A program made the position numbers and the translations under genes. Positions 31,551-64,000 of a DNA stretch of 64,000 bases are shown here, one piece after another. Source of the DNA: Psammoneis japonica (taxonomy: Eukaryota); assembly GCA_008632985.1 (NCBI GenBank), contig QPGO01000056.1, positions 1-64,000 on the forward strand. The letters run 5' to 3'. A model generated the notes under the pieces. It ran no database searches. It was not told the origin of the DNA and was given only the letters and a program-made list of their open reading frames with translations. Position 1 is the first letter of the stretch. Each line of letters begins with the position of its first letter.

Positions 31551-32311
31551 CTATGCGTTGTCGGAATCGTTTACCCCATTCAATTGTAGAGCCGATTCTT
31601 TCCCGCTTTTGAGAGCATCCAAGTGCTCCGCATAGTTTGTCATGGAGTGCAGACTGTGGCCGTTGGATATACCAACCATAATGTTGTCTTCCATGGCCTG
31701 GATGTATTGCGCTGTATCCAAAATTTGCTCAAAGGTAGCGGCGGACGCCACAACAATTCCATCATCATCTCCTACCAGTATGTCGCCCGGAGACACTTGG
31801 ACGCCACCGCATTCAATATCAACTTGCGATTCTCCTAGCGACTGAACAGTTCCAGAGTAGGGCTGACAGAGCGTGAAAAGCACCAAACTCCATTATTTTG
31901 CAAAGAAGAAACATCTCGCATGGGTCCATCAATCACAATTCCCGCCAGTCCTTTTCGGGCCGCTTCACTCGCAAACAGACCTCCAGCCACAGCTCTTGTC
32001 GAATCGAGTGTATTCGCCACCAAAATTTCGTCAGCCTCTGCTTTGTCGAGGGCTTGAAGAACCGGGAAAAAGTCATTGGGTGTCTTGAATTGAACGGTTC
32101 GTGCTACTCCAACCATGACTTTGTCCGGGCTGGAATTGAGAGGTTTTAGACCCTGCAACACGCGGAGGCCGTTGTAGTCCGTTTCTTGCTTGCCACGCAG
32201 TGACTTGTCCGCGTCACAAAGACAAGCTGTATCTAAACAACGAAGCTTCTCCATCAAATCAGATGTGGTTTCGGTCGACACGTTTCGTGCCGTTTGTGAC
32301 CTTGCCATCAT
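31551..32311 (-). CDS. RraA-family protein / HMG-CHA aldolase-like (one frameshift near 31860)
   Basis: LDTACLCDA...VGVARTV...AVAGGL...GLAGIVIDGPMRDV...FSRSVSP continues as YSGT...DIECGGVQVSPGDILVGDDDGIVV. A single C is missing in a C run. Confidence 0.85.
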
Positions 32312-35817: not shown

Positions 35818-38624
35818 TTACATGGTGTGGCGTCTCTTGAGAGTGGAAAATCCCTTGGTGATTGAAAGACCGTCGTCACCATTAGCATCGATAATGACAG
35901 TGTCGCCGTTGCTGTATTCGCCATTCAGAATGCCTTTGGCGACGTTCGTCTCGACCTCACGCTGGATCGTCCTCTTCAACGGCCGCGCGCCGTAGACAGG
36001 GTCGAATCCAACCTCCACAAGGTGATCCATCGCATCGTCAGTGATCATCAACCTCATGTCGCGATCCGCCAATCGCTTCTCCACACGGTTCACCTCTATC
36101 TTGATAATCTCATGCAACGCATCCTTTGACAAGCTGTTGAATGTCACGGTTTCGTCAATGCGATTCAAAAATTCAGGCCTGAACCTGGCCTTCATCTCCT
36201 CCGCAACCGTTTCCTTCATCATCTTCTTGTCTTCTTCGTCTTCTGATCCAGCCAGATCAATGATGGAACGGCTGCCAATGTTGCTCGTGAAAAGAATTAT
36301 TGTGTTACGGAAATCCACCGTGTTGCCTTTGCCATCCGTAACTCTTCCGTCGTCCAACATCTGAAGCATCACATTGAACACATCAGGATGCGCCTTTTCA
36401 ATTTCGTCAAAGAGAATCACGGAATAAGGCTTGCGCCGAACGGCATCCGTCAACTGGCCGCCTTCGTCATGGCCTACATAGCCCGGTGGACTTCCAATGA
36501 GCCGACTGACCGAGTGCTTCTCCATAAACTCGGACATGTCAATACGGATCAAGGCATCCTCAGAGTCAAACATGAATTCTGCAAGTTCCTTTGCCAGTAG
36601 CGTTTTTCCAACCCCGGTCGGACCCAGAAACATGAGCGACGCAATAGGCTTGGTGGGATCGTTGAGCCCGGCACGGGAACGCTGAACAGCATCGGAAACA
36701 ACCTCGATTGCTTCGTCCTGTCCAACCACGTGCTCCTTGAGTTTGTCGCTAATGTGCACAACACGATCGCGTTCCGTCTCGCCCAACTTTTGTTGAGGGA
36801 TACCCGTCCACTTTGAGAGAACCTTGCTAATGTCTTCTTCACACACCTCGTCACGAAGCATCTTGTTCCTGCCGCCTGCCTTCTTGCTCAACTTGGCGAG
36901 TTTCTCTTCAAGAGGAGGAAGGACGCCGTACTTGAGCTGGGAGGCACGGTTCAATTCAAAATCACGTTCCGCCTTTTCGATTTCAAGCTTGGCATTAGCA
37001 AGTTCTTCTCTCACTGCCTTGATCTTGTCAACGCTTCCTTTCTCCCTGTTCCACTTGGAACTGAGTGCAAGCTGCTCTTCGTTGAGACGATCAAGCTCTT
37101 CGTTAATGTTCTCGAGGCGCTTCGACCTGTCACTGTTCTTGGCGGTGGCATATGCATCCTCTTCGCCATCTTGGTCGTAATCAAAGTCGGAATCGGATTC
37201 GAGAGAGATCTTTTCCATTTCGAGCTGCAAGATATGACGGTCTATTCGGTCCAATTCAGTTGGCTTGGAGGAGAGCTGGTTCTTGAGATTGGCACACGCT
37301 TCGTCGACCAAATCAATTGCCTTGTCGGGGAGGAAACGGTTTGAAATGTACCTCGAACTGAGTTTGGCAGCAGCAACAAGCGACTCGTCACGGACGCGAA
37401 CTCCATGATGAAGCTCGTACTTTGGCTTGAGTCCGCGAAGGATGCTAATCGTCTCATCGACACTCGGCTCATCGACCATTACCTGCTGAAAGCGTCGTTC
37501 AAGGGCCTTGTCTTTTCAATGTATTTTCGATATTCATCCACAGTGGTTGCACCAATACAGGAAATCTCGCCTCGAGCGAGGGCCGGCTTGAGCAAGTTGG
37601 ATGCATCCATTGATCCTTCCGAACCACCCGCACCAATCACCGTGTGGAGTTCGTCGATGAAGAGCACAATCTTGCCTTGAGATTCCTTCACTTCATCAAG
37701 AACAGCCTTGAGACGCTCTTCGAATTCGCCACGGTACTTGCTGCCAGCGACCAATGCACCCATATCCAATCCGATGAGACGACTGTCCGCGAGGGACTCG
37801 GAACGTCACCAGATTGATACGTTGAGCAATACCCTCTGCGATTGCGGATTTTCCAACACCAGGATCACCAATGAGCACAGGGTTGTTTTTCGAACGACGA
37901 GAGAGAATCTGGATTGCTCTGTCGACCTCGTCCTCACGTCCAATGCAAGGATCAGTTTGCCATCACGGGCGCGTTGCGTAAAGTCAATGCCGTACTTTTC
38001 CAAGCGCTTCCTCCTTCTTGCTGGGCACCATCCATTCCCATGGCTGAAGGATCCAATCCCATTCCCTTGGCCATACCAGCACCAAGCTGAGAAGGATCAA
38101 GTCCAAATCCGTTGGAGAGGAGCTGATTCATCATTTGCGACATTGCATCATTGCTACTCGTAGCGGGCGACGACGGCGGCGGCGAGGGGGCAGAACTCCT
38201 GTCCCTTTGGCGTTGCGATTGCGCAACATTTCCTCCATGGCCTGCAGGTACGAATTGTACTTTATTCCACGGCGTTCAAACGCTTCTTTTGGATCGCCAC
38301 CTCGGCGTAGAATGTCTTCAATCGCTCTCATGGCGTCGGCATGACGAATGTTGCGTTGATGAAACGAACGACGAAGCGCAGGATTGCGTTGTGACTGTCC
38401 CATGGTTCCAAGAAGCTGACGAAGCAAACCATAAACTCGTCTGGAGATGAACCGCTTGAGTAGAAACTCACTGGAAGGGCGGTCTTTGAAGATTGAGCTG
38501 CTGCAGCATGAGTTGTATCATGGGAGCGCAAAGTAGCAAGAGCCGGAGCCGGAGGAGCAAATGCATCAGATGTCTTGCACACAGTGGCAAGGAGTAGAAG
38601 TAAAACAGAAGGATTGATCTTCAT
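35818..38624 (-). CDS. clpB: Plastid-targeted ClpB/Hsp100 chaperone (several frameshifts in 37480-38430)
   Basis: Signal peptide plus SDA-FAP motif. [23 protein letters not shown] (Walker A1), [27 protein letters not shown], coiled-coil middle domain, [10 protein letters not shown] (Walker A2), [25 protein letters not shown] and GARPLKR. Confidence 0.92.
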
Positions 38625-39059
38625 GGTTGTTGTTGAATAGTGGAAAGCGTTACGTTCGCTGCGTTTTGAAATTTGTGAGACGCCTCTTCGTTTTGAAATT
38701 TGTGAGGCACGATCTCTTTCTCCAAGACTGGAGCCAAGTCGTGCTCACTTTCGAAACTCTTCGAGTCTCTCAACACATTTACGCTTGAGGATAGTGAGGA
38801 AGAGTGCATTGAGGAAGCATTGTCCTTTGTCCTTCGCGTTGCCATTTGATGGCTGTGTTTCCTTGCCTTGATGCTTTCGTTGTGAGATTTGCGACACGCG
38901 TTGCATCCATTGATCGTGCAAAATGGTCAAAAACCGATTTCCATGGAAGCGAAATGGTCGTTTTGTTCATTTTTTGTCGTGATTGGCCGATGCACCGCAA
39001 TCGTGCGAAATTGCGAAAATCGATTGGACAGCTTCATTGACGCCCGTTTGGGCCGACGA

Positions 39060-40560
39060 CCAGAAAACAATGAGAGACATGATGTGTTGATTCCAAAGAT
39101 TTTCACAGAGAAGTCAACAACCTGAGGCTGAGATCATGTGGCTGGTGCTGGAAAACAAGAACCCACCAGCACANNNNNNNNNNNNNNNNNNNNNNNNNNN
39201 NNNNNNNNNNNNNNNNNNNNNNNNNNNNNNNNNNNNNNNNNNNNNNNNNNNNNNNNNNNNNNNNNNNNNNNNNNNNNNNNNNNNNNNNNNNNNNNNNNNN
39301 NNNNNNNNNNNNNNNNNNNNNNNNNNNNNNNNNNNNNNNNNNNNNNNNNNNNNNNNNNNNNNNNNNNNNNNNNNNNNNNNNNNNNNNNNNNNNNNNNNNN
39401 NNNNNNNNNNNNNNNNNNNNNNNNNNNNNNNNNNNNAAGCAACAACTCATGCACCCATGATCTTGTTGTTCTGAGCACAGCCAGGGGGGCATGAGCAACA
39501 AAGCAAGAACCCTGCTGCTGGGTGGTGGCATGCACACACGGCAGGTGCAGAGCAGCTGGCAAATGGCTCAAAAATGTGGGTGGCTTGCAAAAATGGCCAA
39601 ACTTGTTCATCAGCCCCTTTTGTTGGTGAAAAGTTCTCCTGACAACTGCTGCTGACAGCCATGACAGATGACACATGGGTGGCACAACTGGCTGGATGTG
39701 TGCACACCTGCACAAGCTCCAAACCAAAAAGAGGCACAGCTTGTCATGTCTTTTTGGGGTGGGAAGATTGTGGATGGTGACCAGCCCAGCTGGCTCTGGC
39801 TGCACATTCTGCCAAGCATCAAGTGTCTCTGAAGAAGAAGGCAAGGAAAGTGCAAACAAAAAGATGACTGCAGTCTTTGCCCCCAAGAGCAGCCAGCAAA
39901 TGGCTCAAAAATGTGGGTGGCTAGCAAAAATGGCCAAACTTGTTCATCGGCCCCTTTTTTGTTGGTGAAAAGTTCTTCTGACAACTGCTGCTGACAGCCA
40001 TGACAGATGACACATGGGTGGCACAACTGGCTGGATGTGTGCACACCCGCACAAGCTCCAAACCAAAAAGAGGCACAGCTTGTCATGTCTTTTTGGGGTG
40101 GGAAGATTGTGGATGGTGTGGCCAGCCCAGCTGGCGCTGGCTGTGCGTTCTGCCAAGCATCAAGTGTCTCTGAAGAAGAAGGCAAGGAAAGTGCAAACAA
40201 GAAGATGACTGCAGTCTTTGCCCCCAAGCCATGTGGGGGGGGTTTGCTCGCTGCACACGAAAGACTTGCATGAGAGATGATGCGCCAAAAAAGTGCCTCT
40301 CCTGCACAAAAACAGGTGCTGACCCACTCTGCCCAAAAGGCCCGATGGATCAGGAAACAGAAGCCAATGACCATTTTTGCCTTTGGCAGTCACTGCTGGG
40401 ATCTGACGATTGCAGAAAAGTTGGAAAAGCACAGCAAGAGAGCAGTGGAGCGAGAAGAGAGTGTGCTCAGGAGAGGAGAGAGGGAACTCGCTGAGTTTTT
40501 AGAGAGCTTGCCAACAACCAAGAATGATGACACCCACAAAAGCAGAGTTCAACCACTTGT
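39060..40560. other. CpG/TpA-depleted domain C (includes N-gap 39174-39436)
   Basis: Same dinucleotide signature, lying between clpB and the V-ATPase gene. Confidence 0.8.
39551..40226. repeat. ~337-bp tandem duplication (2 copies)
   Basis: agcagc..gcaaatggctcaaaaatgtgggtggc...gcagtctttgcccccaag at ~39551-39887 and ~39888-40228. Confidence 0.9.
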
Positions 40561-40994
40561 AACTTGGACATGTTGAGAAAAACTCACATTGGCAGTTGAT
40601 TTCAACATCCTCATGGAACAGTCTTGTCCATTGGCAGCAGAGTTCGTTCGTCGTGGCGATCAAATTTCCTACTGCGATTCCGGATTCCGCCCGACCAGGG
40701 TAGAATGGGACATTTAGAATATGTAATATGGCTAGAATATCCATGATACTCAGGATCAAATAAAGTTGACTAAACGGAGTTCGTTGGCGAGTCATTTTTC
40801 TACGTGATCTCCCGTGGAAGTACGATACAAACGGAAAAGACGTTAGACTAACAATTCAGTACCAATGTGCGTACAATTCTACTGATTGCGTAGAATACAC
40901 ACAGCTTTGTACTGCACAAACACTTTGCATCGCTCGGCACACACAAACCCCGCACTTTTTGCACAACAGCTTGTTGTGCCCAACCACTGCAACC

Positions 40995-44251: not shown

Positions 44252-47200
44252 CTAGTAGAATAAATCAGCCTGCGCCTCATCAGCATCTTCAAACTGATCT
44301 TCGGCAGGTGCAGCAGCAGGTGCTGGTTTCATCGGAGATTTCGCTACCGCCTCAGGTGTAGGCTTTGATTCCGAGGATTGCGTCGTCATAATCTCTTCAT
44401 GCTGGCCCTGAGGAGCGGGAGAAGATACATCGGCCGAGGCTTCTTTCTCCTTGTCCTCATCCTTGTGTGCGATTTCTTCCTTGTCATCTGCGCCGTCGGC
44501 CTCTGCTTCTTTTGTCTCGTCTTGCACCGTCGTTTGGGGCTCAGCAACTCCCTTCGTCGCATCATCGGCTGGCCCTTTCTCTGGCGTCTTTTTCACCGGG
44601 GACTTTTTTCCTGTCTTGACATATTTCTTCCTCTTCTTCACATCTGACTTTTTGGCCTCTTCACCTTGCTTTTGAATTTCTTGGTAGCTCTCTTCTTGCT
44701 CTTTAAGTGCCTTTTCTGCCAGTTCCTGGCGTCTTGCCGTGCTCTCCTTGACACGTTCAACTTCTTTCTGCAATAGTTCCAATTGCTCCTCTAGCTTTTT
44801 GACTCTGTCGGCCGACTTGAGGGGACTCTTCGTGTCGACCAAATCGTACGCTTTTGCTTTCTGAAAGGAGGGGTCGTGGTCATCTAGAACAATTTCACCG
44901 GCAGCAGCACGAAAGGCGAGTGCCATTCCAAAAATTCCGGTGCTGTCGACCGCAGAACCCGGAACAGTTATGGCATTGCTCACCATGTTTGGCTCCGTCT
45001 TTAGAAGGCGCGTCAAGTAGCTCTTGACAATGGCATTTGCGCGAGCACGCTTATCAGGAATGCCCTTGTCTGGTCCATCTGTACGGCGCCTCTTCTTCTT
45101 ACGCATCTCTTCCCTGAGAATTCTCTCGCGTTCACGCTTCCGCTTCTTGCGCCTGCGCTCCAATTCCCTTTGCTCCTTTTGTAGTTTTTTCTCCATGGGA
45201 GACTGTGCCTTGCTTTTTTTCTTGGCAGATCCCTTGCCTTTCTTGGCCGCCTGTTTCTGCTTCCTAGCATGGTCTGCTTTTTCCTTTTTCAGAGCAGCCT
45301 TATCCGCGTCTGCCTTTTGTTTCTTTCGAGCGTTGGCTCTCTTCTTGGCTTCCTTCCGTCCCGCAACAGTAAAGTCCACGCGTCCATCGCCGGCAAGCAT
45401 TTCATTCGCTTCGTCCTCATCAATAGCAGTCTCCTTCGCATCCAGGGCAGCCTCCTCCGTCTCATCGTCAGATTGGCACAAAACAGCATAGCTGTAGCCC
45501 TGTTCGCCATCCTCGTCCTCCTCAACATCGTCTTCGCCCAAGTCGCCGCAAGTGTCATTGAGTTGCAACTCAAACTCTTCGAGCGCCCACCGTGCTTCCT
45601 CGATGGCTGTTTGGTACGTTTTCGATCGCAACACCTCGTGGGTGCTAGCGCGGCTCGCTCTCTTCTTCTTGGTTACATTGCCAGCTGCGAGATTCTGGTT
45701 GGGTCGTCTTCGGGGTCGAAGTTTTCAACAATATCATGCTCCTTGACCCAGATAAATTCATGCGTTCCCATGAATTCCACCAAAAAGTAACTCTGTCGCT
45801 CCGCCGTACCATTCCGCTGCCGTTTCAGACCTTGTTCTGCTCTCTTCTTTCCGGCTTGCAGCTCTGATCGAAGTTTTTCGGGTAGTCGATCTTCGTTGCG
45901 GTCCGTCAAGGCCGAATGCCAAGCTTCCTTTTGGTCGTCAGGTGCCATGATACCAAGGACTAGCGCAGGCCAATAGGGTTTCTTGGAAGACTCTCTGGCA
46001 TAAATGGCCGCCGCCATACATCCCCAAATACTCGACTGGTTTACACCGCGGCCGTTGGCCTCACAGATCGGACAAATGATTTTTCCCATGATGCGTTCAA
46101 TTCGATTCTTGATGCGAATCCGTAGTCCCGGTCGGTCCTGAAACAAATCGTGCGCGTCATAGCACTTGCGAAGCCCCGCCACAAATTCCTCCACGGTGAA
46201 GTCTCCGGCACCTTCCTCGGCCTCTGGATCCTTGAGCGAAACGGCAAGCCTCGTGAGTTTCTGTTGAAAGCGTTGCAAGTTCTCCACAAACACATCCACA
46301 TCGCCCTCATCGTCTCCTTCCTGTGCTTCAAGTAAAACGGGTGCTTCATCCAGCACATCCACACGTCCACCACTTTTTAGAAATTCACGAATTGCGCCAG
46401 ACGCCTTTTCCAATGTCTTGGCACTCAACAAGGTCAATGAAATGGCTTGAGCACGCGCGGTTCGGTCCGCCTCGCGCTTTTCAAACGAGGCACGTTGTGC
46501 CTTGGTCTTGCCCACCGGGTCCGAGGGCAGCATGTACTCTTGCCAGAGCGAATTAAAGTAGTCACGTAAATGAATAGAAATGGAGCAAAACGACGGCATG
46601 GCCCGATCCTTGTTGGATGGGTGCGTGTGGTATCGAATGCAATTGCAAAAGATGCTCCACATGTCGAGGCGGACATCGCGGGTGTTTTCGTATTCCCGTT
46701 TACGAATTTACGGCACACCGTTCCAATATCCATTGGATACGAGATAATCTTGGAATAGGCAGGCAACAACTGTAGGGGGGGGGGGGAGACATAACGGAGT
46801 GTAGTGTTAGTAATAAGAAACTAAACCATGTCAGCATATAGTCATAATTCACTCACTTCTGGATGCAACAACGCCACAGGACGACTAAACTCCGCCAAAA
46901 AGGGCACCTTGCAAAACTGCTCCATCAAATTAATCATATTTTCAGCCTCGGCATCCGTCATGGCTCGACGGGATCTTCCATGGAGGGTCCTGAAATTCCA
47001 GCAACCTTTTGGGACGCTTGTAGGCGTTGCCTTTTTTTTCTTTTTGGGTTTGGTGGCAACTGCTGCAGCTGCTTCTTTTTCGCGCTTGACTCGTGCTTCT
47101 CCCAACGCCTTCGCCATGGCTTCGGGCTTGCCACGAGGGACAAGAGGAGCCTCTGGTTGCTGCGGAGTTGAAACCTCTTCGGCTGTGTTGCTGCTGCTGG

Positions 47201-47516: not shown

Positions 47517-47879
47517 CTTGTTGTTGTTGATGTTGTTGACAGTTGCGGCAGAGCTCTCTATTATTCTCTATCGTTTGTTGTTAGCAATTGAATAGGCGGT
47601 ACCTTAGGTACCGGTAAGTACTTCTTCTACTGTAATGTTGTTGGTGACCGTGTCTGTTGTTGTCGTGTTGATGTGCGTTGTGCTCGTGCGTGTTGGTGCT
47701 GGGTGCTCTCCGTCGCGCCAGAGTGACGGGTGGACGATCCTGCCGACGACGACGACTCTTCTCACGCACCTGCCTCACTCATGCTGTAGAGGGAGTCTAG
47801 CTAGCTAGCATGGCCCACCTCATGGCTGGGCCCATGGCAGCTACACTAGAGAGCCCCACTCTAGCCAGAGCAGAGAGCA

Positions 47880-49730
47880 GAGTGCAGCAGCAATTAAATT
47901 GGGTGCCAACAAAGAACTTCTGGTGGGGGTGCTGCAGAGAAAGAATGATGAGAAAATGCTCGTGTCTGCAACAAAGCATGTTGGGGAGGACCTGCCGCAC
48001 AGCAGGAGCAGCCCCTGCCAGATTGATTGTTGGTGGAGCCAAATGGCTGAATGAAGTGCAACTGTGCACAACCAATTTTGGAGAAATCATTTTCATGCTT
48101 TGCGCCGGTGATGCTGCCAACAACGTCCTTAAAGAGCACCCTTGCACTGTGAAGAGCAAACATGCACAGCAGCCAGAAGAAGGTTCCCCATTGCAAAGAC
48201 TGCTTTTCTGGTTGGAACATTGGGGTCAGAGGTGTTTTTGTGTGATGGATGGACAAAGTTGCAGCTCAAAAAGACTCTCCAACGATTGTGGATGACATGG
48301 CGAGTTTGCGCTCGCAGCTTGGTTTGAGCTGCAGGTCTTGTGCTCACTGGTTGATGTGGCAGTGGTGGTTGACAGCAGTGGTGACATGTTTGTGAGCCAC
48401 TTGGTGAGTTGAGAGTTGGTGAGACCAAATGTGTGCTGGTTGGCAAGTCACAAAACTCCAACACAGAAGCTGAAAAGGCACGACACAATTCTCAAAGCAG
48501 TGGTGTCATCAGAGGATGGCTGGGAAGTTGACAGAAGTCCAAAGGACAAGGGTTGAGAAGTCAATGGGAAAAGGCTGGGAAGTCAACATGAGCCCAAAGG
48601 TGTGCCTCGTGTTGGCAGATCATGGGGCAAGTGAGCCGGCTGGACAAGGGTGAAGAAACAATCTCTGGAGGGCCTTGCTGTTGACATGATGTGGCGCAAG
48701 ATGAAAATTATGAAAATTGTTTCTGTGTGCATTTTCAGTGTGTCATGGGAATCAGGAGTTTGTTGTCAGACAAAAGCATTGTGTTTTTTCAGCAAACCAC
48801 ATGGTCAGGCGCTGGGGCGTGCGCACAGTGGCAAGAGTGACACTCAACAGAAATTCCATTTCAGTGATCACTCATTTGTCACATCTTTCTCCATGTCATC
48901 TTGGAAGAAGGGCCATGAAAGGCACTTCCAAGACAAAAACAGTGTGACAGCTTGAGAGCCCAAACATGTGAGCACTTTTCTCTGCCATCTCAGCTGCCTG
49001 TTGAGTGAAAAAAACTGCACCTTTTGACAATTTTTCCTTCTCAAGAAGTGGCCAACTCAAAATTAAAAGTAAAAAACATCACTTTTTTTGCCAACTGCAA
49101 CATCTCATTGATTGAACATTGAAGCTCGCAGTTTCTTTTCACGGACAAGTCAAGGATGCAGCACCAGTTGAGAGTGCAGGACACTTGGTCGAAAGAAACT
49201 CAGGATTTGACAGCATCCTGGGAGAGGTCAAAGTGCAACCATCATTTTGTGCAGAAAAGTGTGGAAATCATGCTGCCAGAAAAAAATCCTCACAATTTTT
49301 GTCTCACACCACCTCAAAGAAGCAGCCAAGGGTGGGTCTGCTGAAAGAGGGCACAGCAAGGTTGTGTTGGGGTCACAGTGAGACAGAGTGTGTGGCTGTT
49401 GGCAAGCCATGGAACCCCAACACAAGTCCCAGAAAAGATGGGCAACAAGGACACAGCCAAGTGTGGAAGCATGAAAGAACTGAAAGAGTGGGTGTGACAC
49501 CATGTTGCTGAGTCAGGACGACAGGCTCAGGCAGATGGTTGCACAAAAACTGCAAGGAAGATTGGCAAGCACATCAGAAGAATGTTTGGGTTGTGCCAGA
49601 GATGCAGGCACTGGCATCTCTGAGGCAAGAGAGCAACCCAAAAGAGCCAGAGTGTCCATCAGGAAGCACTGCATCAGAGAAGGACAAGGCAATCTGGATG
49701 AAGAAACATGATCACTGTGTGAAACAGAAT
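47880..49730. other. CpG/TpA-depleted domain D
   Basis: Same signature; begins just after ctagctagctag at 47797. Confidence 0.8.
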
Positions 49731-49880
49731 GCAATCTACAAGACACAGAAGGCAAAGGTGTTCAATGTCATCACAGGGCAATGTGCAAAGGCCATTCATC
49801 ACAAGCTTGAAGGAGTGATGGAGTTCGTGAGAATTGTGGAGGAGTGGGACATGGTGGCACTGCTGGATGTTCTAATGGAT
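49440..49880 (+). mobile_element. Copia-type gag remnant
   Basis: QADGCTKTARKIGKHI and AIWMKKHDHCVKQNAIYKTQKAKVFNVITGQCAKAIHHKLE...DMVALL resemble diatom Copia gag as I recall it (ADxYxKTTxxIxEYV; KAKVFxxIxGQC...KLE). Confidence 0.6.
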
Positions 49881-50355
49881 CCCAACAAAGTCACTTGTTT
49901 CGGGGACTCGGTGCAGCGACTAGGCGTGACCATTGGGAACAGGCGACAGTCGACTGGAAGCAACAAATCATGGAGAGACCGTAACCAAACAAATTTCCCA
50001 CTAACACCTTGCTGCGAACACCAACCACAATCACCATGAGACGCGGCCATGCCAAAGCCGCTCTATGAAAGACTTTTAGACACACCATTTGAATTGTCTC
50101 TAAACTATTTGGATTTATGTAGCGATTCTAAAGATGAATGCGGCACGCCACCGAGTCTTTCAAAGTGCAAAAGGGAACAACAGAGGACTGGAATGCACCT
50201 TTTTCTGTCCCATTCCGGACTTTCACCATATCCCTTTTACTGTCATGAGAACTTTTGAGTCGTTTTGAGAGACTTGAAGGCATCTATACCGCATGGATGG
50301 TAAATGTAGAAGTATGCATCATAGAAATAAGCAAACAATGGAACGCCGCTTCTTT

Positions 50356-53188: not shown

Positions 53189-54640
53189 TAAAGTGGGGAG
53201 ACCTGACAACTGCACAAAAACACCCATCACCAAAGGCAAGGCAGCTGCACGCAAGGACAAGGAACAACATGTGAGACAAAGTGCAACATGCAGACAAGGA
53301 GCTTGTGCAGAAACAGAGTGTCTGGCCACTTCACCAGTGGCTGCAAGAGGCACAGAGCAAGAAGAAAAAGCCAGCAGAGGGGGGCAAGAGCCGCACACAG
53401 AGAGGAGAGTGGTGGTGTTTGCTTTGCCTTGAAGAACCTGGTGGAAGAGGCAAAGAAAATGCCAGAAGGGGGAAATTGTGAGACTGCTTTGGTGATGCCT
53501 GAGATCTGCCTCACAAAGAACTGCTTCAATGCACAGTCGATGACACGCCACAAGTGAAGTCAAGAAGCCACACACAGACAAAAAAAAGCAAGTCAACTTG
53601 GCACAGTCTTGACCAGGGTGGCGGCTCAAGAATGCATGCAGTCACCTGCAAGGTGCCAAGCAGCACAGAAAAGCAACTTGGATTTTAAAGTGGGGCAAGC
53701 TGATGATTTTTCAAGCACGACCATCGCCAAAGGCCAGCTGTGCTCAAGGACAAGGAACAATTTGTGGAGCAAAGTGTGGTGTGCAGACAAAAGAAGTTTG
53801 TGCAGAAGCAGTGTGTCCAGCTGCTGTGTTGATGGCTGCAAGAGGCAGAGCAAAAGAAGCCAGGGCAGCACTGTGCACCAGCTCCCACAGAGAGCCCCCC
53901 TGTGTCTTTTGAAGAAACAGGTGGGGATGAACAAGGTGCCAAAAGGGAAAATTGTGAGGCCATTTTGGGTGCCAAAAGCAAGAAGTTGAGATGCTCTGCA
54001 GCGCAACTCAGCAAGAGCTCATTGCCACCCCAGCAGGCCAGCCAAGCATGTGTTGTTCATGACCAAGCAGCACCCTGCAAAGTGTTTTCAGCCCAACTTT
54101 GGGGTGTGGCCCGCCAGTTGTTGTTGAGAACTGCCTCACAAAAAACTGCTTCAGCGCTTGTCGCTGAATCTCCAAGCACATGAAAGCACTGAAGTTTGCC
54201 AAAGATGCCATTGAGAGAGTGCAAGCATGATTTGCAGCTTTGGCACAGAGCTCCCAGCACAGTGCTTTGTGGAGAGGTGCCAAGATCATGAACAAGAAGA
54301 GCAGCAGCAGCAGCAGCAGCAGCAGAAATCAGCTCTGTGTGTTGGAGCAGCAGCAAGCAGCCAGAGCAAAAAAAAAATAAAAGATGAAAAGAGCAGAAGT
54401 TCACAGCAGGCAAGCAGCATCCTCTGAGGTGGCCAGAAATGATCTCTCCAGTGCGTGCCGTGGAGCACAAGGCAGGCAGCGTCAGAAGCAGGGAGAGAAA
54501 ACAAAGGCTTGCTTTTGTGAGGATGGCATGAGCATGGTCAAGAAGCCACACAGAGAGAAGCAAGAAGCCAACTTTGTGCAGCCTTGCAGCTTTGGTGCCA
54601 GGCGGCGGCTCAAGAACAGCGCACATCATCATGCACAGAC
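53189..54640. repeat. Degenerate ~500-bp direct repeats
   Basis: aaagtgggg...ccatc(a/g)ccaaagg...caaggacaaggaacaa at ~53189 and ~53687. gtcaagaagccacaca...ggcggctcaagaa at ~53559 and ~54537. Confidence 0.7.
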
Positions 54641-57600
54641 GCTGCTCTTGCAAGGCACCAAGAAGAGCAGCATCGGTGCTGGTCAGCTCCCATCTGCAAG
54701 ACCTTGGTCTCTTGCATTGCCAACTTAGAGCACTTTGTGGCAGAGTTGAAAATCAAAATGCTTTGATCAATGTGCACAGCATGGTGGCAGGAAGGAAGTG
54801 GGCAAAAGAAGACAAGAGCTGCTTGGGGTGAGCGAGGAGACAAGCTGAGACAGTGGGGCAAGCAACAGCTGACAACGGCAATTCTTTGTGCTCAGAATGC
54901 CTTCACTTCACATTTTCTGTGTTCACTGCCCTGTTTGCTTGCATTAGACTGGTGACATTTGTGCCACAAGATCATCACTCCGTGCGCGCTTCACAATGGC
55001 AGTTTAAAGCTGTGTTTGACTAACTTGATTAAAATGACAAAGGGGCAATGTGTGATGACTCTCACAATTGCCCAATTTGGCAAGTGACAAATTAGCCTCT
55101 GTGTGCGGTGCATCCTTGAAATGTCCTGTGCCTTGTGTGCAGCACAAATTTTTCACCGCACATGAGGTGCAATTGCTCAAAGGATGACCTTCCACGTCAG
55201 CACTGTCGTCATGTGCATTTGCCCACACTGTTTGACGACCTGCCCTTGGCCGTGGCTGTGTTTGTTTTTGTCGCGCTGCAACACAAACAGGGAAAACTTG
55301 AAAACAAAGAGAAATGAGAAATGAAGACAGCGCACCTGTGCAGTGCAGCGCATGCAGGCGGGTGTCAAATGATGTCTGTCTGCAAGCAGATTCCAGACGA
55401 TGGAAAGCCAAGCAAGGCAGACATTGTCATCATTCCATTTTCAATTTTCAAAATTGCAAGATCACCAAAAAAAAAGGTCATCAAACACACTCGCTTTGCA
55501 CTCACAATTCTTCTAAAATCACTTCTTTGTTTCATTGCTGTCACTGAGCATGCAACCTTTCTGAGCTGTGGTGCATGATCTCCACATTTGCACTTTTCGA
55601 GCAGGGCGAGCCCAAACAGCAGAGGCCAAATTTCTCATGGAGTTGAGTTCAAGAGGGCACAAAACTGTCCCTTGTGCAGTCAAAACAGTTTTGCAGGTTT
55701 GCTTTTGCCAGCAAACATTGTGCACTCTTGATGTCACCAAGCAACCCCTCCTTTGTGTTCTCCAGAGTTCACATGCAGGCCACACACCCAACCACAAGAC
55801 ACAGAGTTTGGAGCTGCACCACCCTTGCAGCATCATCCATTTGAGTCAGATTTAAGCTCAGAAAAACAAAGGATTGCCATGGCAAGAATTGGCAAACAAC
55901 AGAAATTGTTGTGCCCCACACAGAGCCACGGTGTTGTGTTGAGTTGTGATCATCCTCTAAAGCCCTGTTTTTTGTTTTGTTGAGCAGCCCAACCATCATT
56001 GTTGCATTGTTTCTAGAAGTCTTGTTTCATTGACTCTCTTTGGGGAAAAACTCTTGCATTGCTGTTCTTTGGATGAATTCTCTCTCTCAACAAAATTGCC
56101 TGGATCCTCCACACTGTGACAGCATCCCCCCGTCATTGACTTTGATGCAAGCTGGCTCTTCCAAAAGCTGCCATCAAAGAAGAAACATGCCTGGTGACTC
56201 AAGCCTTGGCTGCATGCACACACAGTGATCTGTTGGCACCCAACACCACAGCGGCACTCTGCCCCATCATTGCGGCAGCTTGCTTCATCATTTCTCCTGA
56301 AGTTGCACTCGTTTTGGGACCTCAAATGTGCCTCATGTGTGGAATCTTGGGATGCATTGAGCTGGCTGCAGCTTCATTGGTGCACTTTTGGGTGCAATCA
56401 GTTCTTCAGTTGTCAATCTTGCTGGGGCATCAGCATGGCTCTGGATCTGTGCTCTTGTGGAGTGCTGTGGGTGTCCTCATTTTACAGCTCTCGATGGGCA
56501 TTTTTCAATGTTTCAGCCATTGCAAGAGGGGGCTCATTTCCCTTTTCCGTTTTTGCAATGATGACAAAGCAAGTGGACGGATGACATTGGACATCATCTT
56601 CTTTGGATTTGTCCTTGCTGGCACACTTTAAAAAACTGCTTCTTTCCCCCAATGTGGCAAATTCTGCATTGAACATTGGGATGGGAGGTTGCACCATTCC
56701 ACTTTTGCAACATGTTGACTTGTGCAACATGTTGGGTGGAATTTTAATGGGCCATTCATTGGATGGTGGCTTTGCAACAGTGCACAATCATTGCTCTGTT
56801 GCCATTCACTCTGCATGCACCAAATTTGTTTGAGAATTGTCTGTGATCACATGGAAAAGCATTGTGACAACTTGTGAAAACAACATTTTCTTGACTGTTT
56901 CAAATCCCATTTTTGAAGTTCAAGCAGCCTGTGGCAGCTTCTTTTGCAGCAACAAGCAGCACGTCACTGTGTTTGTTTGACACAGGATGCCACACCCCTC
57001 CTCTTGGAAGAATCCATCACTGGTCACTGGGGACATTCTTGCAGACAAAGCACAGAGTGACTGTCCCACAGTCTGGGTGGCCATTGTTCAAGTGATTGAC
57101 ATCAACTCCAATTGCTTGCTGATTGTGCACACAAAAGACTGCTGGCAACCAAGCTGCTGCATCACTTTGACAACCAGATTCTGTGTTTTGTCTTCTGCAA
57201 GAGTCAATGCAGCTTGCTTTAAGTTCTGCAATGCCACACTTGTCGGGATTCAAACTGCTGCTGTGCACACTGTGAATTTGCCCATGGGCTCTGATTTGGT
57301 CAAAGACATTCTTGCAAGTCATCTTCCATGAACAAGGAACGGAACCCAGATTTCATCATTTGAGCACATGACGCCAATCTCTGCAATTCCAATGACGGAA
57401 AGATCATCAGAGTGAGTGTCGGTGGTGATGAATTCTCCCTCATCACATGCAACCGTGTCACTGCCCCTGGTTTCCTTCTGGCTTGGAAGGACTTGTCCAT
57501 TGTTGACAATGTCTCTGACAGCAGGGTCAGTCCATTCGAGTGTGAGTGGTTGTCACCACCATCACAAGAACCAACAAGGGCATTGCCAGCATCGACGACC

Positions 57601-60600
57601 ATGTTGCAGTGATCATCAAGAGCACAGCCCAAGTTTGTCAAGACTGTGTTGGTGGCGGGTGGGGGGAATGAGTCAAGTCACTCCACTTGGATGGAAATGG
57701 GAGCAGGGCTTAAAGCTGTGCTGGCAATCCAAGTGGCTGCATCGCCATTGGCTTGTGGTTTTGCTCCATGAGTGCAAATGCTCATCTTCTCTGTGTTTGC
57801 TTGTAATTTCTTGACTGCCTCCTTTGCTTCTTCTGAATGCACACTGGCTTCCAGGCTGTTTCCACATCCTGCAAGCTTGGCTTTTGCTTCAAGGGTCAAC
57901 TTGTTGGCACATTTGGAATCTTGGACTACATTGAGAATGTGCATTTGATGGCCACAGACTGATCACATGGTGACCTTGATGACATGATGCATCCCGAAAT
58001 TGCCAAGAATGCAGCCATGGACAGCAGCTTCATTGCACTCATCTGGCAAAGCATCAAGCAAGGCAAGAAAGTCTCGGTGAAACTTTGGAAGAAGACTTGA
58101 GCTGATGCGTGCTTCACAGGAGCAGCAAGAAGCCTCCATCTGGATCATGGTCTGTTTGGATTGGGACAACTCATCTCTGGTAGGCTGGAAGTGGTGAGAG
58201 GTTGAGAGCTGGGCAGTGACACCAGGAGGAGGGGGAGTGTTGTCAAGTGGGGGTGGGGCATTTTCAAGTGTGGAAGAAAGACTGACATCCTGGCCAATGT
58301 TGTTGCTTGTTCTGTCTCCACTCAAGAGGGCCACTGCTGTGCCAACAATGATGCCAACAACAAGGACAAGCAATGGACTGGCACCAGCAACATTCATCTT
58401 GGTGCAGTTGGTGGACATTTTGGGTGTGTTGCTGTCCACCTCGGTGTCAACATAAAGCAGAGTTGTCTTGTTTAAATCATTCTTGCTCATGTTGTTATGA
58501 GGATGTTTTTGATTTGTTCTCAACCTGAATTTGTGAGAGGTTTGGTTCCACCATTCTCCTTGCAGACAACATTTTGACTGCACAAACAATTTGCTGCATT
58601 TGAGTGAGTCAAGCAAGTCCCGTGCTGCTGCAATGAGTGAGGATGATGTCATCAGTCTCCTGCATGAGCAGTCTGCCATTCTTGGTTTCTTTTGTTGTGC
58701 CAACTGAGTGACAAGGTCATGATGTGGTCAAGTCCTGCACATGAGTCAGACTCCTNNNNNNNNNNNNNNNNNNNNNNNNNNNNNNNNNNNNNNNNNNNNN
58801 NNNNNNNNNNNNNNNNNNNNNNNNNNNNNNNNNNNNNNNNNNNNNNNNNNNNNNNNNNNNNNNNNNNNNNNNNNNNNNNNNNNNNNNNNNNNNNNNNNNN
58901 NNNNNNNNNNNNNNNNNNNNNNNNNNNNNNNNNNGGCTGCAGCTCCAAGCAGCTCACAGGTGTCAGCAGTCCGCCAAATCACTTGTCCAGCCTTTTTCAC
59001 AAACTCCTTCTTCAGCTTCTTTCAAAAGTTGTGCAGCGCAAGGCAGCAAAGCTTGCACGATCTAATGTGTTGTGAGGTGGGCACAAGCTTGTGGCATTGC
59101 AATTTTTTCATGTGTGTGCCCAAAGAACAGAAGTTTGTGGAAAGGTGGCCAAGAAACGAAAATTCCATTTTGCTTCTGTCCATGGTGAAAAGCAGGGCAT
59201 GCATGCTCATTTTTTTTCATTTTTTAGAGCTCGCATGCTTCTGGCACTCTGCCCCAGCTTTGCTGGTGTGTGGTTGCACTGTGCACTCACATCTTCTCCA
59301 TTCCTCTGGAGTGTTGACTTTCTTGCTGAGTGCCCCAAAAAAATCCCTCCTCTCCACCCCTCTTCCTGTTCTTGCTTTGTGTGCTCCAGCTGCTGTGCAG
59401 CATGTTGGTGTGTGCTGCGCCACACCCCCAGAAGAAAAGAAAGTTTCCCAGGATGCTGCCCACTGACACAAGTCAGGAACTGACAAAACAGCAAGCTTGA
59501 TGACAAATGAAAGACACTCACACAGTTTGTTGTCAAAGACAGACATGTGCAGCAATGTCAAATGACCATGCACATGCTGGCTTTTTGTGCACCGCTCTCG
59601 AGTGGTTTGATCTGTGACAGTCTGCATGCTCAGCAGAGAGAGTGCCTTTCTGGGGTTTGAAATGAGGTGTCTCTGCCCCCAAAAGCAACTTCAAACAAAG
59701 GTTGCACCTGCACCCAATGTGCTGCTCAGCCAAACATGGTGTGCGTGGTGCTCTTCAAAGCTGGTGGAGTTGTCACTCAAAACAAACAGAGCACCAACAG
59801 CTGACAGCAGTGTGCACAACACCCCCCAAAAAACCTGAGCAGCTTTTGAAGCATGTGGGCTTTTGAGAGAAAAATTTTTGTGAGCAGCATGTGTGAGAGC
59901 CATGCCAGCTGATGTTTTGGCAATGAACAAGCAGCTGTGCACTGTGCTCAAAGAACGAGCACAAACGAAAGCAGAGCAAAGGACAAAAAGTGAAAATTGT
60001 GAGATTGGATTTTACTTGATCATTTTGGGATTCTCCAAACAAGTTCTCAATGGCCCAAAGCTTCTGCACTGCTTCTGCAGACCAAAGGCCTTTTGGAGAA
60101 TGTGTTCATGACAACAGATTGTCCGGATGCGATTGCTGTTGACACATGAGATGTCAACATTGTCAAGCGATTGCTTTCTCAAATTTTGACATCCAATCAA
60201 TTCCATGTGACTGACATCTGTCATTTGCATGAACCCATGATTGACGCACAATTAAGAACACAACAATGTTCAAATGTGAAAATGTGTGCACATGCACACA
60301 ACAATGCATGTTGCATTTGCCTCCCATCAAATGACACAATGCGACAGACATTGACAGTGTCAACTGTGTCAGCCACCGCGTTTGATCTGCACTGTGTGCC
60401 ACTGGCATGTGTTGTTGTTGTGACATGCGGTCCAGCACATGGCTGTTCTAATCTTTGGGAGTCTGTCATGTTGCCCAGCACTTGATGTGCATGCTCAATT
60501 GTGGCATCAGCTTGTGAACTTCATGCAGTCATGGGCTTGACTTTTGTGCCACAGTCCTCTTGAACCACATCTTTGAAATTGTGTCCAATGAACTCACTTC

Positions 60601-63600
60601 CACGGTCACACGTAATTGACGATGGCCAAGGACATCCACTTGGCCACATCCTTTCCAACAGCCCAGCTGCAGCTGTGGATTCCTTGTTTGGAATTTCCAC
60701 AACTTCAAACCATCTGGTTGCCAGATCAGTCATTGTCAAACATTTTGCAGGTCCAATGAGATCCACACATGGTTGTTCCCATGGCACTGATTCTGCACAC
60801 CCAGGAGGCAAATGTCCACATTTCTTGTGTTTCTTTTTGAATTTCTTGCACGTCTCACATTTTGACATGCATTTTTGCATGTCTTCATGCAAGGCAGACC
60901 ACCACAAGTGTTGTGAGATTGTTTCTTCTGTTCTGTTTGTGCCACGGTGAAGAAGGTGCACATGGCGCCAATCCATCACCGCTTTTTGTAACGTCTTTGG
61001 AACAATGATTTCACCCTTGTGACACATGAGCAACCAGTCTCGCTCACCTCCACAAAAAGTCTTTGCATGAAATGTCTCTTTGGACAATTTGGAGAGAATG
61101 TCTTTGTCCCATTTTTGTTCAGCATCAAGAACTTTGCACGTCAACGGAAAGACATTGTCGTGAGATTTTGGTGGGACCTTTTCAGCCATTTCTTCTGTGC
61201 TGAGATTTTCCATGGGTTCTGTGTTTCTGATGGCAAGTCGGCTGATTGCATCTGCAACAATGTTGGCCTTGCCCTTGAGGTAAATTATTTTGGGGCTGTG
61301 TTCTTCTGTTGTCAGACGCCAACGCGTGACTCTGTCCATTGTGAAATTTTTGTGTGTGAGATTTTTGTGATCCACACACACATTTGTCTGTTGGCCAAAC
61401 AGTGTGTTCTGGAATTCTTTGAGTGTTTCCACAATGGACAGCAGTTCTTTTTCCATTGCAGCATGATGTGTCTGTGCTCCATTCAGCTTGCGGCTGTAGA
61501 AAGCAACAGGTTGGTTGTTCTGCGCAATGACTGCCCCCAATTGAGAATTGCTTGCATCAGCATGCACCTCAAAGGGTGTTTTAAAATTCAGACATGACAA
61601 CAACACATCTCTGGAGATGATGCGCTTCACATTTTTGAAGGCTTTTTGTTCTGTTTTGGTCCATTGCCACTTTGCCTTGGATGAGGTGAGTTTGACAAAA
61701 GGAGCCACAATGTGAGATTGTCGAGGCCACATGTCTTGACAGCAGTTGATCAACCGACAAAGCATTGCAATTCCTTGCAAGTTTTGGGAGCTGCAATCAC
61801 GTGAATTACTTCCACTTTTTTTGGCATTGGACTGATGCCATTGTGAGCAACATGAAAGCCCAGACAGTCTGCTTTGGGTTTGGCAAAGAAGGGCTTTTTG
61901 GCATTGACCTTCAACCCGGCTTGTTCAAGGCATGTGAACACCCTTTCAAGCTTTTTGAGATGGTCTTGAAAGTCTCCTTTTGCAAGGCACAACATGTCAT
62001 CAACACAAGTCCTGACGAACTCCAGACCTGCCATGAGTTCACTCACGTGCTCTTGAAAAACATCTGGAGCTCCGCAGATTCTCACAGGCAGCCTGCAGCA
62101 CTCATGTTTGCCCCAAGGCATGATGATTGTGCACAAGCAACGTGCGTGCAGAGTTGATTTGATGTGACAGCATCCCATGTTCAAATCAAGTGAAGTGGCA
62201 TGCATGAAACCCTTGAGCTTCTGCAGCACATCTTGAACATTGGGTGGAGGAAATGGATCACACATTGACCTCTCATTTGGTTCACAAAAGTCTGATGGGA
62301 ACCAAACTTGACCAATTTTCTTTGGCTGAACAAAGGTTGGAGCTGCCCATTTGCAACAATTGATTTTTCTTAAGACCTTTGGCTTGCACAGTCTTTCAAC
62401 TTCCTTTCCAGCAGTCACCTCCAAGGCTTGTGATGTGGGAAATGGCTTTGTGTGATGCGGACTTGCACCCGATTTCAACTTGAGATCCACTGGTTTCCCA
62501 GTCTGTTTGCCCAGAGAACCATCAAAAAGATCCTCAAATCTTTTTAGAAGAAAGTTCAGTTGTTTTTGCTCCTCTGGAGTTAGATGAGTTGCTGCTGCAG
62601 CCACATTGTTGAGGTCAGCAGCATGATGATCTGAGTCAAGGATCCAATTGACTGTGTCATTAAGACCAATCACGGCATGAGATTCCTCAATGTGATTGGC
62701 AACAAACTTGAAAACATTGGCATTGAAGAGTGTGTCAATGTTCTTCACAGGTGCAGTTGCTTCTTCCTGTTTGATTTCTTCATTCAAAAAGTCCAATGTG
62801 ACTCCAAGACTGGACAACAAGTTGCATCCCATGATCACATCACAACAACTGGAGGAAGAAGGGGTGTTGTCAACATGTGCTGAAGTTTCCATCATCTCAT
62901 GTTTGTCAAATTCAAGTGAGGTGAAATGGATTTTACACTGACTGTCAGTCGTGAAGAGTCCTCCTTTGGTTTCCCAAATTTTGGTGGCAGATTCTTTGGT
63001 TCTGAGTTTCCGCGTGAATTTGTGCAAAATTGTTGTTGACGATCTTCCGCTGTCAAGGAGAATGCACAGAGGCTTGTTTTTTCCTTGCCCAAGGATGCAT
63101 TCACATGGGCAATGACTTCTGGACCAGAGTGAATTGCTTTGGCCTTTTTCCTTGTCTTTCTAGCAACATCCAGCAACACACAAGACTCCTCTGGTGGAGT
63201 GAGTCATTCTTCAAAATCGCTGTGGGTCAATTTTTCAAATTGACGGTTTTCCTCACTGAGGGCATCTGAGTCATGATCCTTGCTCTTGCGCTTTGCATCA
63301 TTGTTCGGGCAACTCAACTTGAACATTTTTTGAACTGCCTTGTCAATCATGGCATTCAGCTCTTCTTTGCGAGTGGCGTTTCCATTGTTGCGACATGACC
63401 ATGTGCGATTGCCATTCGAACAATGCCGTTTTTGATCACGCCCACAATTTCCATTGCATTCCTTGGCAAGTTTTTTAATGACCCAGCATTTGTGTGTGTG
63501 TTGTGAGTGTCCTTTTTGCAGCACTTACACCACTTTTCAGGATCATCTCGTTCAGCACCAGATTGGCAACCATTTTTGGAACCATGACTGGATCCATCTT

Positions 63601-64000
63601 TGGCTTTTGACCCAGGCTTGCCACTGGCATCAGCCTTGACATTGACAGAGTCAAAGATGTCCTCAGCAACCTCCAGTCACTCCAAGAACTCCACCAACTC
63701 ATCACAGGCATGCTTTAAATTCTTGAAACCTTGAAGAGTCAACTGGCGCTGCCATTTGCATGGCACAAGGTTGTAAAAGACATCCTTGAGCTTGTTGCCC
63801 TTGAGCTTCTGATCTTCTGCAAAGGGAGGACAATGCTTGAGGTCTTCGTTGACTTCTTGGATCCAAGTGGCGATTTCTCGGATCTTCATGGTTTCTGGTT
63901 TCTTGAGATCATGATGTGGATGAAGCTTTTGAATCTGGAGAGTGTTCTTTGGAAATGCGTGCCTTGTGAGGTGTTGCAGACATTTTTTGAAGGCTGCTTT
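53190..64000. other. CpG/TpA-depleted domain E (includes N-gap 58756-58934)
   Basis: Abrupt loss of TA and CG after ~53190 that persists to the window end. Confidence 0.88.
60330..64000 (-). mobile_element. Degenerate Ty3/Gypsy LTR retrotransposon (gag-PR-RT-RNaseH-IN), truncated by window end
   Basis: gag (PPFAEDQKL...LVPCKWQRQL...DELVEFLE), protease ILLDSG (~63045-63063), RT (WAAPTF, SLDLNMGCCHI, RTCVDD), RNase H (ADASNSQLGAVI, FYSRKL, EKELLSIVETLKEF, DHKNL), integrase (HVHLLH...C..C, DLIGP, CDRGSEF) and a decayed GPY/F tail (LEQPCAGPH). Order PR-RT-RH-IN. Confidence 0.93.

Follow-up and report, generated by a model that had tools for sequence, protein, structure and literature searches.

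We identified a Ty3/Gypsy-type retrotransposon with an almost tyrosine-free pol in the first 64,000 nt of contig QPGO01000056.1 of the diatom Psammoneis japonica (assembly GCA_008632985.1, forward strand; this whole stretch is referred to below as the window). The element lies on the minus strand and extends from about position 60221 to the window end, with its 5' end beyond the window. Its pol is divided over two minus-strand frames. Pol frame 1 (61753-63159) combines a protease-like N-terminus (LLDSG) with the reverse transcriptase (RT) and comprises 469 amino acids stop-to-stop without any Tyr; its YxDD box reads CVDD. Pol frame 2 (60524-61750) contains RNase H, the integrase zinc-binding domain and the start of the integrase core; stop-to-stop it covers 60524-61924 (467 amino acids, two Tyr), of which the first 58 residues are out-of-frame. 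The two frames are joined by a 1-nt frameshift near 61752 (61750-61755, minus strand) that was read directly: frame 1 ends in ..CFVG followed by tga, frame 2 continues with LINCC.., and relatives read FlGmVNYY across this point. Frame 2 ends at a TGA inside the integrase core (60521-60523, minus strand) that aligns with Arg in 34 of 40 relatives (CGA to TGA). The core continues behind it in the same frame (60221-60520, minus strand; ..SSQADATIEHAHQVLGNM..) with no Pfam match in this continuation. Similarity to the relatives ends about 30 residues past the TGA, so that the element is truncated or rearranged on its 3' side. Upstream of pol, frames in gag position (63204-64000, minus strand) contain an in-frame TGA and a frame change and run past the window end; no Pfam family above threshold was found in them, and the label gag refers to position only. 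No second copy of the element was found within the window by tblastn or blastn, nor was a direct repeat involving 59-64 kb.

The Pfam domains along pol (RVT_1, RT_RNaseH_2/RT_RNaseH, Integrase_H2C2, rve) follow the Ty3/Gypsy order. RT_RNaseH_2 (89 bits) and Integrase_H2C2 (43 bits) were detected, together with matches to RVT_1 (27.1 bits, cut-off 29.6) and rve (28.3 bits, cut-off 32.6). The LLDSG of frame 1 aligns with the protease motif of relatives; a Pfam search detected no protease family in the frame of the window, while relatives score 24-32 bits. Database searches identified 1097 proteins at E ≤ 0.001 for the RNase H-integrase (RNaseH-IN) frame (best 1e-126, 48-50% identity) and 239 proteins below 1e-30 for the RT frame (best 1.5e-106). 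The pol departs from an intact enzyme in its CVDD box and in RVT_1 and rve, both of which score under their cut-offs. Judged from its domains, the element appears to be a dead member of Ty3/Gypsy and not a non-member.

A preliminary description of this locus had counted two Tyr in two long frames of 425 and 419 amino acids, and had proposed that the pol was inactivated by erasure of Tyr rather than by stop codons. Those lengths are presumably the ATG-started versions of the frames given above, and the count of two Tyr was confirmed. With the median Tyr content of 3.5-4.2% in listed homologues, about 34 Tyr are expected for 936 amino acids. Each frame was aligned with 40 relatives (80 in all; query coverage ≥ 55%), four Tyr-free database hits being excluded, and a column was taken as a conserved Tyr column when at least 60% of the relatives have Tyr. 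There are 23 such columns, at which the window has Tyr in 2, Cys in 12 (all TGY), His in 6 (all CAY), and Phe, Arg (CGC) and a gap in one each. Cys or His accounts for 18 of the 20 replaced columns and for 18 of the 22 residues at conserved Tyr columns. The two remaining Tyr, both in frame 2, are encoded by TAC at 61498 and 61282, within CTAC and TTAC, respectively. Intact relatives, examined for Cys or His at these positions, carry Tyr: median Tyr retention is 88% (RT) and 93% (RNaseH-IN), and the median Cys+His share is 0 (79 relatives with enough columns). The motifs that had been quoted as examples are all present and align as claimed: GFMHATSLDLNMGCCHI corresponds to the consensus GF.YaTalDLnMGYYhi, WGKHECCRLP to WGKY.Y.RLP, and RTCVDD (act tgt gtt gat gac) to rvYiDD, confirming loss of the catalytic YxDD box.

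Other conserved residues were scored in the same way. Arg was kept in 10 of 30 columns, with replacements including 4 Cys, 3 Gln, 2 His and 1 Trp, and Ile in 11 of 32 (6 Val, 6 Thr, 3 Met). Met was kept in 3 of 11 columns and replaced by Val in five (T|ATG to T|GTG across the codon border). Trp, Phe, His and Cys columns were kept at 86-93%. Leu was kept in 40 of 53 columns and replaced by Pro in two and by Ser in one; the earlier suggestion of a change of Leu to Pro or Ser is therefore real but minor. FPSDFCEPN, which had been read as an altered FLSDFRELN, does align with the FisDFReLN of relatives, but the first residue in question is Ile-like there and not Leu. The Leu, Ile and Arg changes obey the TA and CG rules in this column scoring. 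In total, 122 of 402 conserved columns were changed (first 58 residues of frame 2 dropped). TA- or CG-context transitions alone can produce 65 of the 122 changes from the consensus residue, versus 10-40 under five other dinucleotide rules; these share sites with the TA rule (in TAT, for instance, the A also belongs to AT) and are weak controls, the clean test being the paralogue comparison described below.

The same composition extends over much of the window. A two-state segmentation on pyrimidine-purine (YpR) steps and a 1-kb profile of dinucleotide observed/expected ratios (o/e) identified five converted blocks with abrupt borders, which make up 27,137 of the 64,000 nt (about 42%). TA and CG together form 4-7% of the YpR steps in the blocks versus 34-40% outside. 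The blocks are located at 656-6735, 8584-15229, 39061-40638 (adjoining an N gap), 47866-49896 and 53194-63995. The last block contains the Gypsy element and reaches the window end, and its TA and CG share is 7.1% versus about 39% outside. In the blocks o/e is 0.02-0.1 for TA, 0.1-0.3 for CG and 1.6-2.1 for TG and CA, and in the remaining sequence about 0.5 for TA and about 1.0 for CG. Within 60221-64000 we counted 19 TA versus 282 expected from base composition, and 58 CG versus 190. The G+C content is about equal in the converted and normal compartments, which is expected if A:T to G:C changes at TA offset G:C to A:T changes at CG. The 55.6-59.8 kb region has single-copy word depth (65.7 versus 56-61 over genes), yet its TA o/e is 0.03-0.09. 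Apart from the element, 72 of 73 long frames in the blocks are without a Pfam family and one is MACPF-like. The erasure of Tyr is a by-product of a block-wide DNA process, which affects coding sequence no differently from non-coding and repeats no differently from single-copy DNA, and not a gene-specific inactivation. The preliminary description had extended the erasure to Tyr recombinases and Rep proteins, which would be logically sound since both Tyr codons contain TA; a Pfam search of the long frames in the converted blocks found no Tyr recombinase or Rep gene.

The direction of the change can be read from a 1.3-kb segment that is present twice in the window, at 9790-11118 inside the second converted block and at 17141-18438 in the normal compartment (78% identical). 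The latter copy has normal TA and CG and serves as an internal reference. None of its 41 TA is kept in the converted copy, where they correspond to CA in 17 cases, TG in 14 and other dinucleotides in 10; of its 66 CG, 3 are kept, 30 read CA and 28 TG. Between the paralogues, 85% of TG and 89% of CA persist, as do 60-89% of AA, TT and AT, whose losses are neighbor effects. Transitions account for 183 of the 239 substitutions, divided into 99 G:C to A:T and 84 A:T to G:C, and the A:T changes at TA fit only A to G after T and T to C before A. For the Gypsy element, with the 80 relatives as outgroup, the direction is the same (TAY to TGY or CAY; CGN to TGN or CAN). No Pfam family was found in the two long frames of the converted copy (10042-10401 and 10188-10640). 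The unconverted copy contains three open stretches in the same frame on the minus strand.

Metagenome contigs were scanned with an alignment of the window RT and three Tyr-free database proteins, using patterns that included DL[NS]M[GA]CCH; the scan is hence biased to erased copies. It identified 79 loci, eleven of which read DLNMGCCH and have a whole-locus TA o/e of 0.05-0.47. In a twelfth TA-poor locus (L017, TA 0.27) the motif was not detected by the pattern search. The CC form was not seen in any locus with TA o/e of 0.55 or higher; ..MGYYH/Q was read in about half of these, and the pattern search gave no motif match in the rest. In eight pairs of related metagenome copies (78-98% identical), adjacent double mismatches are most often CA versus TG (187 of 398 doubles), and in the pair L072/L076 this type makes up all 9 doubles and 9 of the 16 difference events. 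This indicates that an ancestral TA or CG was resolved independently in each copy and that no edited master copy was propagated: conversion took place in situ, copy by copy. In X1, the one public run that contains the window, the summed word depth of the Gypsy is 1,100-7,500 versus about 60 for genes, an excess that makes the family multi-copy, and 926 of 1722 contigs are 90-95% alike. By arithmetic, identical copies that were each fully converted independently would end up about 90% identical. Of the differences that separate the window from other run X1 copies, 40 of which were listed, at least two are CA/TG doubles (53961-2 and 61993-4). Among the 150 best database proteins for the RT frame, four (P0129, P0190, P0249 and P0265) have no Tyr and read ..MGCCH.. 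and ..ACIDD/ACLDD..; as they are only 33-40% identical to the window frame, other Gypsy families share the erasure.

The sequence context of the surviving TA is not random. Within the element (60221-64000), 17 of 19 are preceded by T or followed by A. ATAT, ATAC and GTAC are absent from the blocks versus 77, 154 and 84 in the normal compartment (0 versus 315 together), and relative survival in the blocks is about 0.8 for TTAA and about 0.2 for CTAA, CTAG and GTAA. When four converted metagenome stretches were compared with 16 intact relatives, survival was lowest for ATAT (0), ATAC (0) and GTAC (0.014) and highest for CTAG and CTAA (about 0.2); ATAT, ATAC and GTAC together occur once in the metagenome copies versus 1181 times in the intact relatives. 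These values roughly fit a strand-wise rule in which the A of 5'-TA-3' is hit with a preference for the 3' neighbor of T and C over G over A. TAT and TAC codons represent the most susceptible TA context, so that Tyr is converted almost quantitatively. Both strands are hit about equally, the TG/CA asymmetry ranging from -0.21 to +0.23 per kb. A strand asymmetry as a sign of transcription-coupled or RNA-level editing was considered and rejected, as it has no consistent sign.

According to the genetic code, the change of TA and CG to TG or CA makes an in-frame stop only from CGA and erases TAA and TAG. Per 1000 trinucleotides, TAA and TAG together occur 2.9 times in the blocks versus 15.7 times outside, TGA 25.8 versus 19.0 times and all stops 28.7 versus 34.8 times, and long open frames persist across the blocks in each of the six phases. 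Full conversion was simulated on the pol frames of the 16 intact relatives (766-1208 amino acids). All 28-57 Tyr were removed, and 1.0-10.9 stops per frame appeared (half of the CGA codons), roughly half as many as the 4.7-12.5 produced by an equal count of context-free transitions. Frames are thus spared in relative but not in absolute terms. For RVT_1, three intact relatives reach 91-98 bits, two of the Tyr-free database proteins 47-57 bits and the window 27.1 bits. The proposal that this pol died by Tyr loss rather than by stop codons holds in so far as the Tyr loss follows the change of TA to TG or CA, but the pol also has one in-frame TGA and one 1-nt frameshift.

The normal compartment of the window contains genes for a CSE1 exportin, a ClpB-like AAA protein, a V-ATPase subunit a and an amine oxidase. 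The V-ATPase subunit a shares 76-81% identity with proteins of the diatoms Seminavis, Cylindrotheca, Nitzschia, Epithemia and Stephanodiscus, which confirms the diatom host assumed in the preliminary description. Contigs of a second run (X2) that match gene parts only skip 87 nt at 46769-46857, with ends CT..AC (GT..AG on the minus strand). Run X2 resembles cDNA, and the skipped stretch would be an intron in the gene located at about 45.7-46.9 kb. On the converted blocks this run yielded one 80-nt piece only (8 differences), which is not evidence of silence. Over and beside the ClpB-like gene (36001-39000), TA o/e is 0.27-0.30 with CG at about 1.05 and TG and CA not raised, and the segmentation assigned this region to the normal compartment; the TA deficit may result from codon usage or from early TA-only conversion. 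The normal compartment also contains a perfect 98-nt tandem duplication (24166-24361) and a dispersed repeat of about 1.5 kb (24938-31553) with a spacing of 4.06 kb, whose copies at 26124-27503 and 30189-31553 are 75-90% identical. TA and CG are normal in this dispersed repeat, so that repeats as such are not always converted. In the converted block at 39061-40638, a tandem repeat of about 340 nt with units 95-99% identical (39549-40228) lies beside the N gap of 263 N. The MACPF/perforin-like frame (57966-58727, minus strand; 25.7 bits, cut-off 21.5) has single-copy depth and one Tyr in 254 amino acids, and adjoins an N gap at about 58.75-58.93 kb. It has His or Cys at positions where, as we assume, MACPF motifs usually carry Tyr (..GCILGNFGMHHV..), and gives the impression of a gene, either host-type or captured, that this process has also inactivated.

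We consider it highly probable that the locus represents a dead, 3'-truncated Gypsy copy in the diatom nuclear genome, located in a sharply bounded block in which TA and CG have undergone near-complete transition to TG or CA in place. The conversion acted on DNA, on both strands and within blocks, and is nearly complete. It consists of changes of TpA to TpG or CpA (A:T to G:C) and of CpG to TpG or CpA (G:C to A:T) in discrete blocks. TAY codons become TGY (Cys) or CAY (His), and ATA, CTA, TTA, CGN and a T|A at a codon boundary change by the same rule. With TAA and TAG removed from every frame and only CGA turned into a stop, long open frames persist in a dead gene. The CpG part is likely the decay of methylated cytosine, in line with the CpG methylation of diatom transposons. 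The TpA part is likely a targeted hypermutation of the type reported for the chlorarachniophyte B. natans (Mettrop et al., bioRxiv 10.64898/2026.01.13.699255, April 2026); the match is one of signature, and the mechanism may or may not be shared. As to the chemistry, we tentatively suggest that adenine is deaminated at 5'-TA, on either strand, in silenced chromatin; the main alternative is a thymine that is modified and mispairs. A chromatin-domain signal is favored over sequence homology as the trigger by the sharp borders, by the sparing of one paralogue and by the conversion of single-copy DNA.

Converted single-copy DNA and one spared paralogue also argue against a purely homology-triggered process and against RNA or cDNA editing. 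Homology-triggered mutation of duplicates, resembling the repeat-induced point mutation (RIP) of fungi and perhaps carried out by the RID-related DNMT4, would fit the multi-copy depth of the Gypsy region in run X1 (1,100-7,500 versus about 60) and the duplicated segment in the block at 8584-15229, and DNMT4 is described as common in diatoms with unknown function in the part of the article available (PMC9998398). However, RIP mutates both members of a pair, whereas here only one paralogue is converted, and about 4 kb of single-copy depth inside a block is converted equally. RIP also makes C to T changes and enriches TpA, whereas TpA is removed here and 84 of the 183 paralogue transitions are A:T to G:C, which cytosine methyltransferase chemistry cannot yield as A to G or T to C. 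Such a process is unlikely as a substitute for chromatin-domain targeting. Editing before integration, in which the RNA or cDNA of the retroelement was hyper-edited (ADAR-like A to I, or APOBEC-like) and then inserted, would account for a retroelement as target and, in its ADAR form, for a U before the edited A, a preference cited in the available text of the B. natans preprint (10.64898/2026.01.13.699255). It is nevertheless very improbable, as the block extends past the element into unrelated, single-copy sequence, a non-retroelement paralogue was converted too, both strands were hit, and sites with CA in one copy but TG in another require independent events per copy. The near-total conversion of one dinucleotide is moreover unlike hyper-editing, and ADAR is a metazoan family.

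The converted sequence could also be an artefact, in which a signal-based sequencer systematically misread modified bases (5-methylcytosine in CpG, an altered A or T in TpA) and TG or CA entered the consensus at each palindromic site. Such misreading would imitate the division into TG and CA at these dinucleotides and would affect modified (silenced) domains only, and the platform of the assembly is not on record. Against this, converted stretches of 0.5-3.7 kb recur with 0-6 differences in evenly covered contigs of run X1, although this run may be the source of the assembly itself. The longest of these k-mer contigs (depth even, about 60) measures 315 kb and so speaks for accurate reads; noisy reads would not have reproduced the converted sequence. 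The signature also occurs in unrelated assemblies of other data sets and in the 4 of 150 best database proteins, related copies differ at such sites in fixed ways, and the element has a frameshift, a truncation and many unrelated substitutions besides; a base-calling artefact is therefore very hard to maintain. Selection instead of mutation, by which a functional lineage would avoid TA and CG, perhaps as a way around a host nuclease or sensor, and would work without Tyr, would agree with the long frames and with the avoidance of UpA and CpG, which the part of the source available describes as frequent in RNA viruses (PMC3829696). We give this idea hardly any credence: invariant catalytic and structural residues are gone (CVDD; RVT_1 27 versus 91-98 bits), the pol contains an in-frame stop and a frameshift, and non-coding, unrelated sequence of the block is depleted equally.

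Several points weigh against the in-place conversion of TA and CG as set out above. TTAA survival is about 80% in the window versus about 11% in the metagenome copies, and the fine context preference is not fully reproducible. The paralogous pair is without an outgroup, and its direction rests on the Tyr and Arg columns and on the composition of the normal compartment. Run X1 may not be independent of the assembly, and its platform is not on record. The chemistry of the TA change is purely deduced. The report on B. natans, in its available text, concerns integrated viruses, is silent on CpG and describes activity in some lines only, and the mechanism may differ between the lineages. Finally, metagenome locus L044 has TA 0.2 with CG 0.95, and L017 is likewise TA-depleted with near-normal CG. 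The Gypsy copies L044, L017 and L060 range from 0.0 to 0.3 in TA o/e and from 0.5 to 0.97 in CG o/e. Such copies, some of them with TA o/e of 0.0-0.2 beside CG at 0.5-0.95, make the two processes separable, and their co-occurrence need not mean one machine; TA conversion can precede, or proceed without, CpG decay.

The match of signatures would place in a diatom a TpA hypermutation so far reported in one preprint on a rhizarian alga. A diatom case at saturation over about 42% of 64 kb suggests that many marine protists are subject to this process and that their repeat compartments are shaped by it. It may be diagnosed by TA o/e below 0.1 together with TG and CA above 1.6, by Tyr-free pol frames rich in Cys and His, by CA/TG double mismatches between copies and by TGA as nearly the sole stop. 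For annotation it would be a hazard, as long frames in six phases and sub-cut-off Pfam scores lead to spurious 'orphan' genes and hidden transposons. The borders in the window offer testable positions for a chromatin or modification mark directing the process, and the pair 9790-11118/17141-18438 is a natural experiment for its dating and direction. It is conceivable, though we regard it as rather doubtful, that diatoms and chlorarachniophytes share an enzymatic genome defense that edits chromosomal double-stranded DNA at 5'-TA (best TAY) in silenced domains, to saturation and separably from CpG decay. Transposon and viral genes would then be killed by erasing Tyr codons (YxDD boxes, catalytic Tyr), with TAA and TAG removed and misleading long frames left behind. 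This would be an ancient A:T-directed counterpart of RIP in the SAR (Stramenopila, Alveolata, Rhizaria) supergroup and a natural DNA adenine (or thymine) editor. For base-editing research, a natural enzyme that acts on A:T pairs of double-stranded DNA in a dinucleotide context would be of interest.

Compared to known systems, fungal RIP is alike in that it makes context-dependent transitions only, kills transposons and produces compositionally distinct blocks. In contrast to RIP, which creates TpA, introduces many stop codons and hits all copies, the process described here leaves TpA at o/e 0.02-0.1 and CpA at 1.6-2.1, makes few stop codons and spared the paralogue at 17141-18438. ADAR and the TadA/ADAT2-type deaminases share the change of A to I, read as G, and a 5' preference for U or T; the natural tRNA target of TadA/ADAT2, A34, always follows U33. 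These enzymes act on RNA in nature, whereas the substrate here must be chromosomal DNA on both strands, and the 3' pyrimidine preference is not that of ADAR. The decay of methylated CpG in silenced transposons is known in vertebrates and plants. The present case resembles it in the change of CG to TG or CA (58 of 66 CG in the paralogue), in CG depletion with an excess of TG and CA, and in affecting silenced repeat DNA, and such decay explains the replacement of Arg by Cys, His, Gln, Trp or a stop. It cannot produce the A:T to G:C changes at TpA, whose completeness here equals or exceeds that of the CpG changes. In diatoms, as far as the available parts of the sources go, transposable elements are CpG-methylated through DNMT5a and many species carry a RID-related DNMT4 of unknown function (PMC9998398; PMC2806351).

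In the literature covered, which leaves most subscription journals outside, a TpA process was found for B. natans only and none for diatoms. The available text of that preprint (10.64898/2026.01.13.699255) describes mutation-accumulation lines in which the mutation rate of an integrated giant virus and of a virophage is about 1000 times that of the remaining genome, with changes almost only of A to G or T to C and always at TpA. TpA-poor, CpA+TpG-rich 1-kb windows cluster in that genome, TpA-poor coding sequences are enriched for RT and DDE domains, and the authors proposed an ADAT2-like adenine deaminase; a term search of this text returned no mention of CpG, tyrosine, stop codons or diatoms. 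Foreign origin of the targets, as in B. natans, can be pointed to here for one Gypsy element in the blocks, next to 72 of 73 other long frames without a Pfam family, one MACPF-like frame and a part that is single-copy. To the extent that the text describes the B. natans case, both share TpA to TpG or CpA transitions, discrete regions and a clustered depletion of TpA with an excess of CpA and TpG. The host there belongs to the Rhizaria, whereas P. japonica is a diatom (Stramenopila), and the mutation rates measured in B. natans contrast with a signature known here from sequence alone. The targets there are giant-virus and virophage inserts, and here a long terminal repeat retrotransposon, unannotatable repeats and single-copy DNA. 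TA o/e is 0.45 in the nucleocytoplasmic large DNA virus region of B. natans and near saturation here (0.02-0.1), where the conversion is in addition spatially coupled to strong CpG loss.

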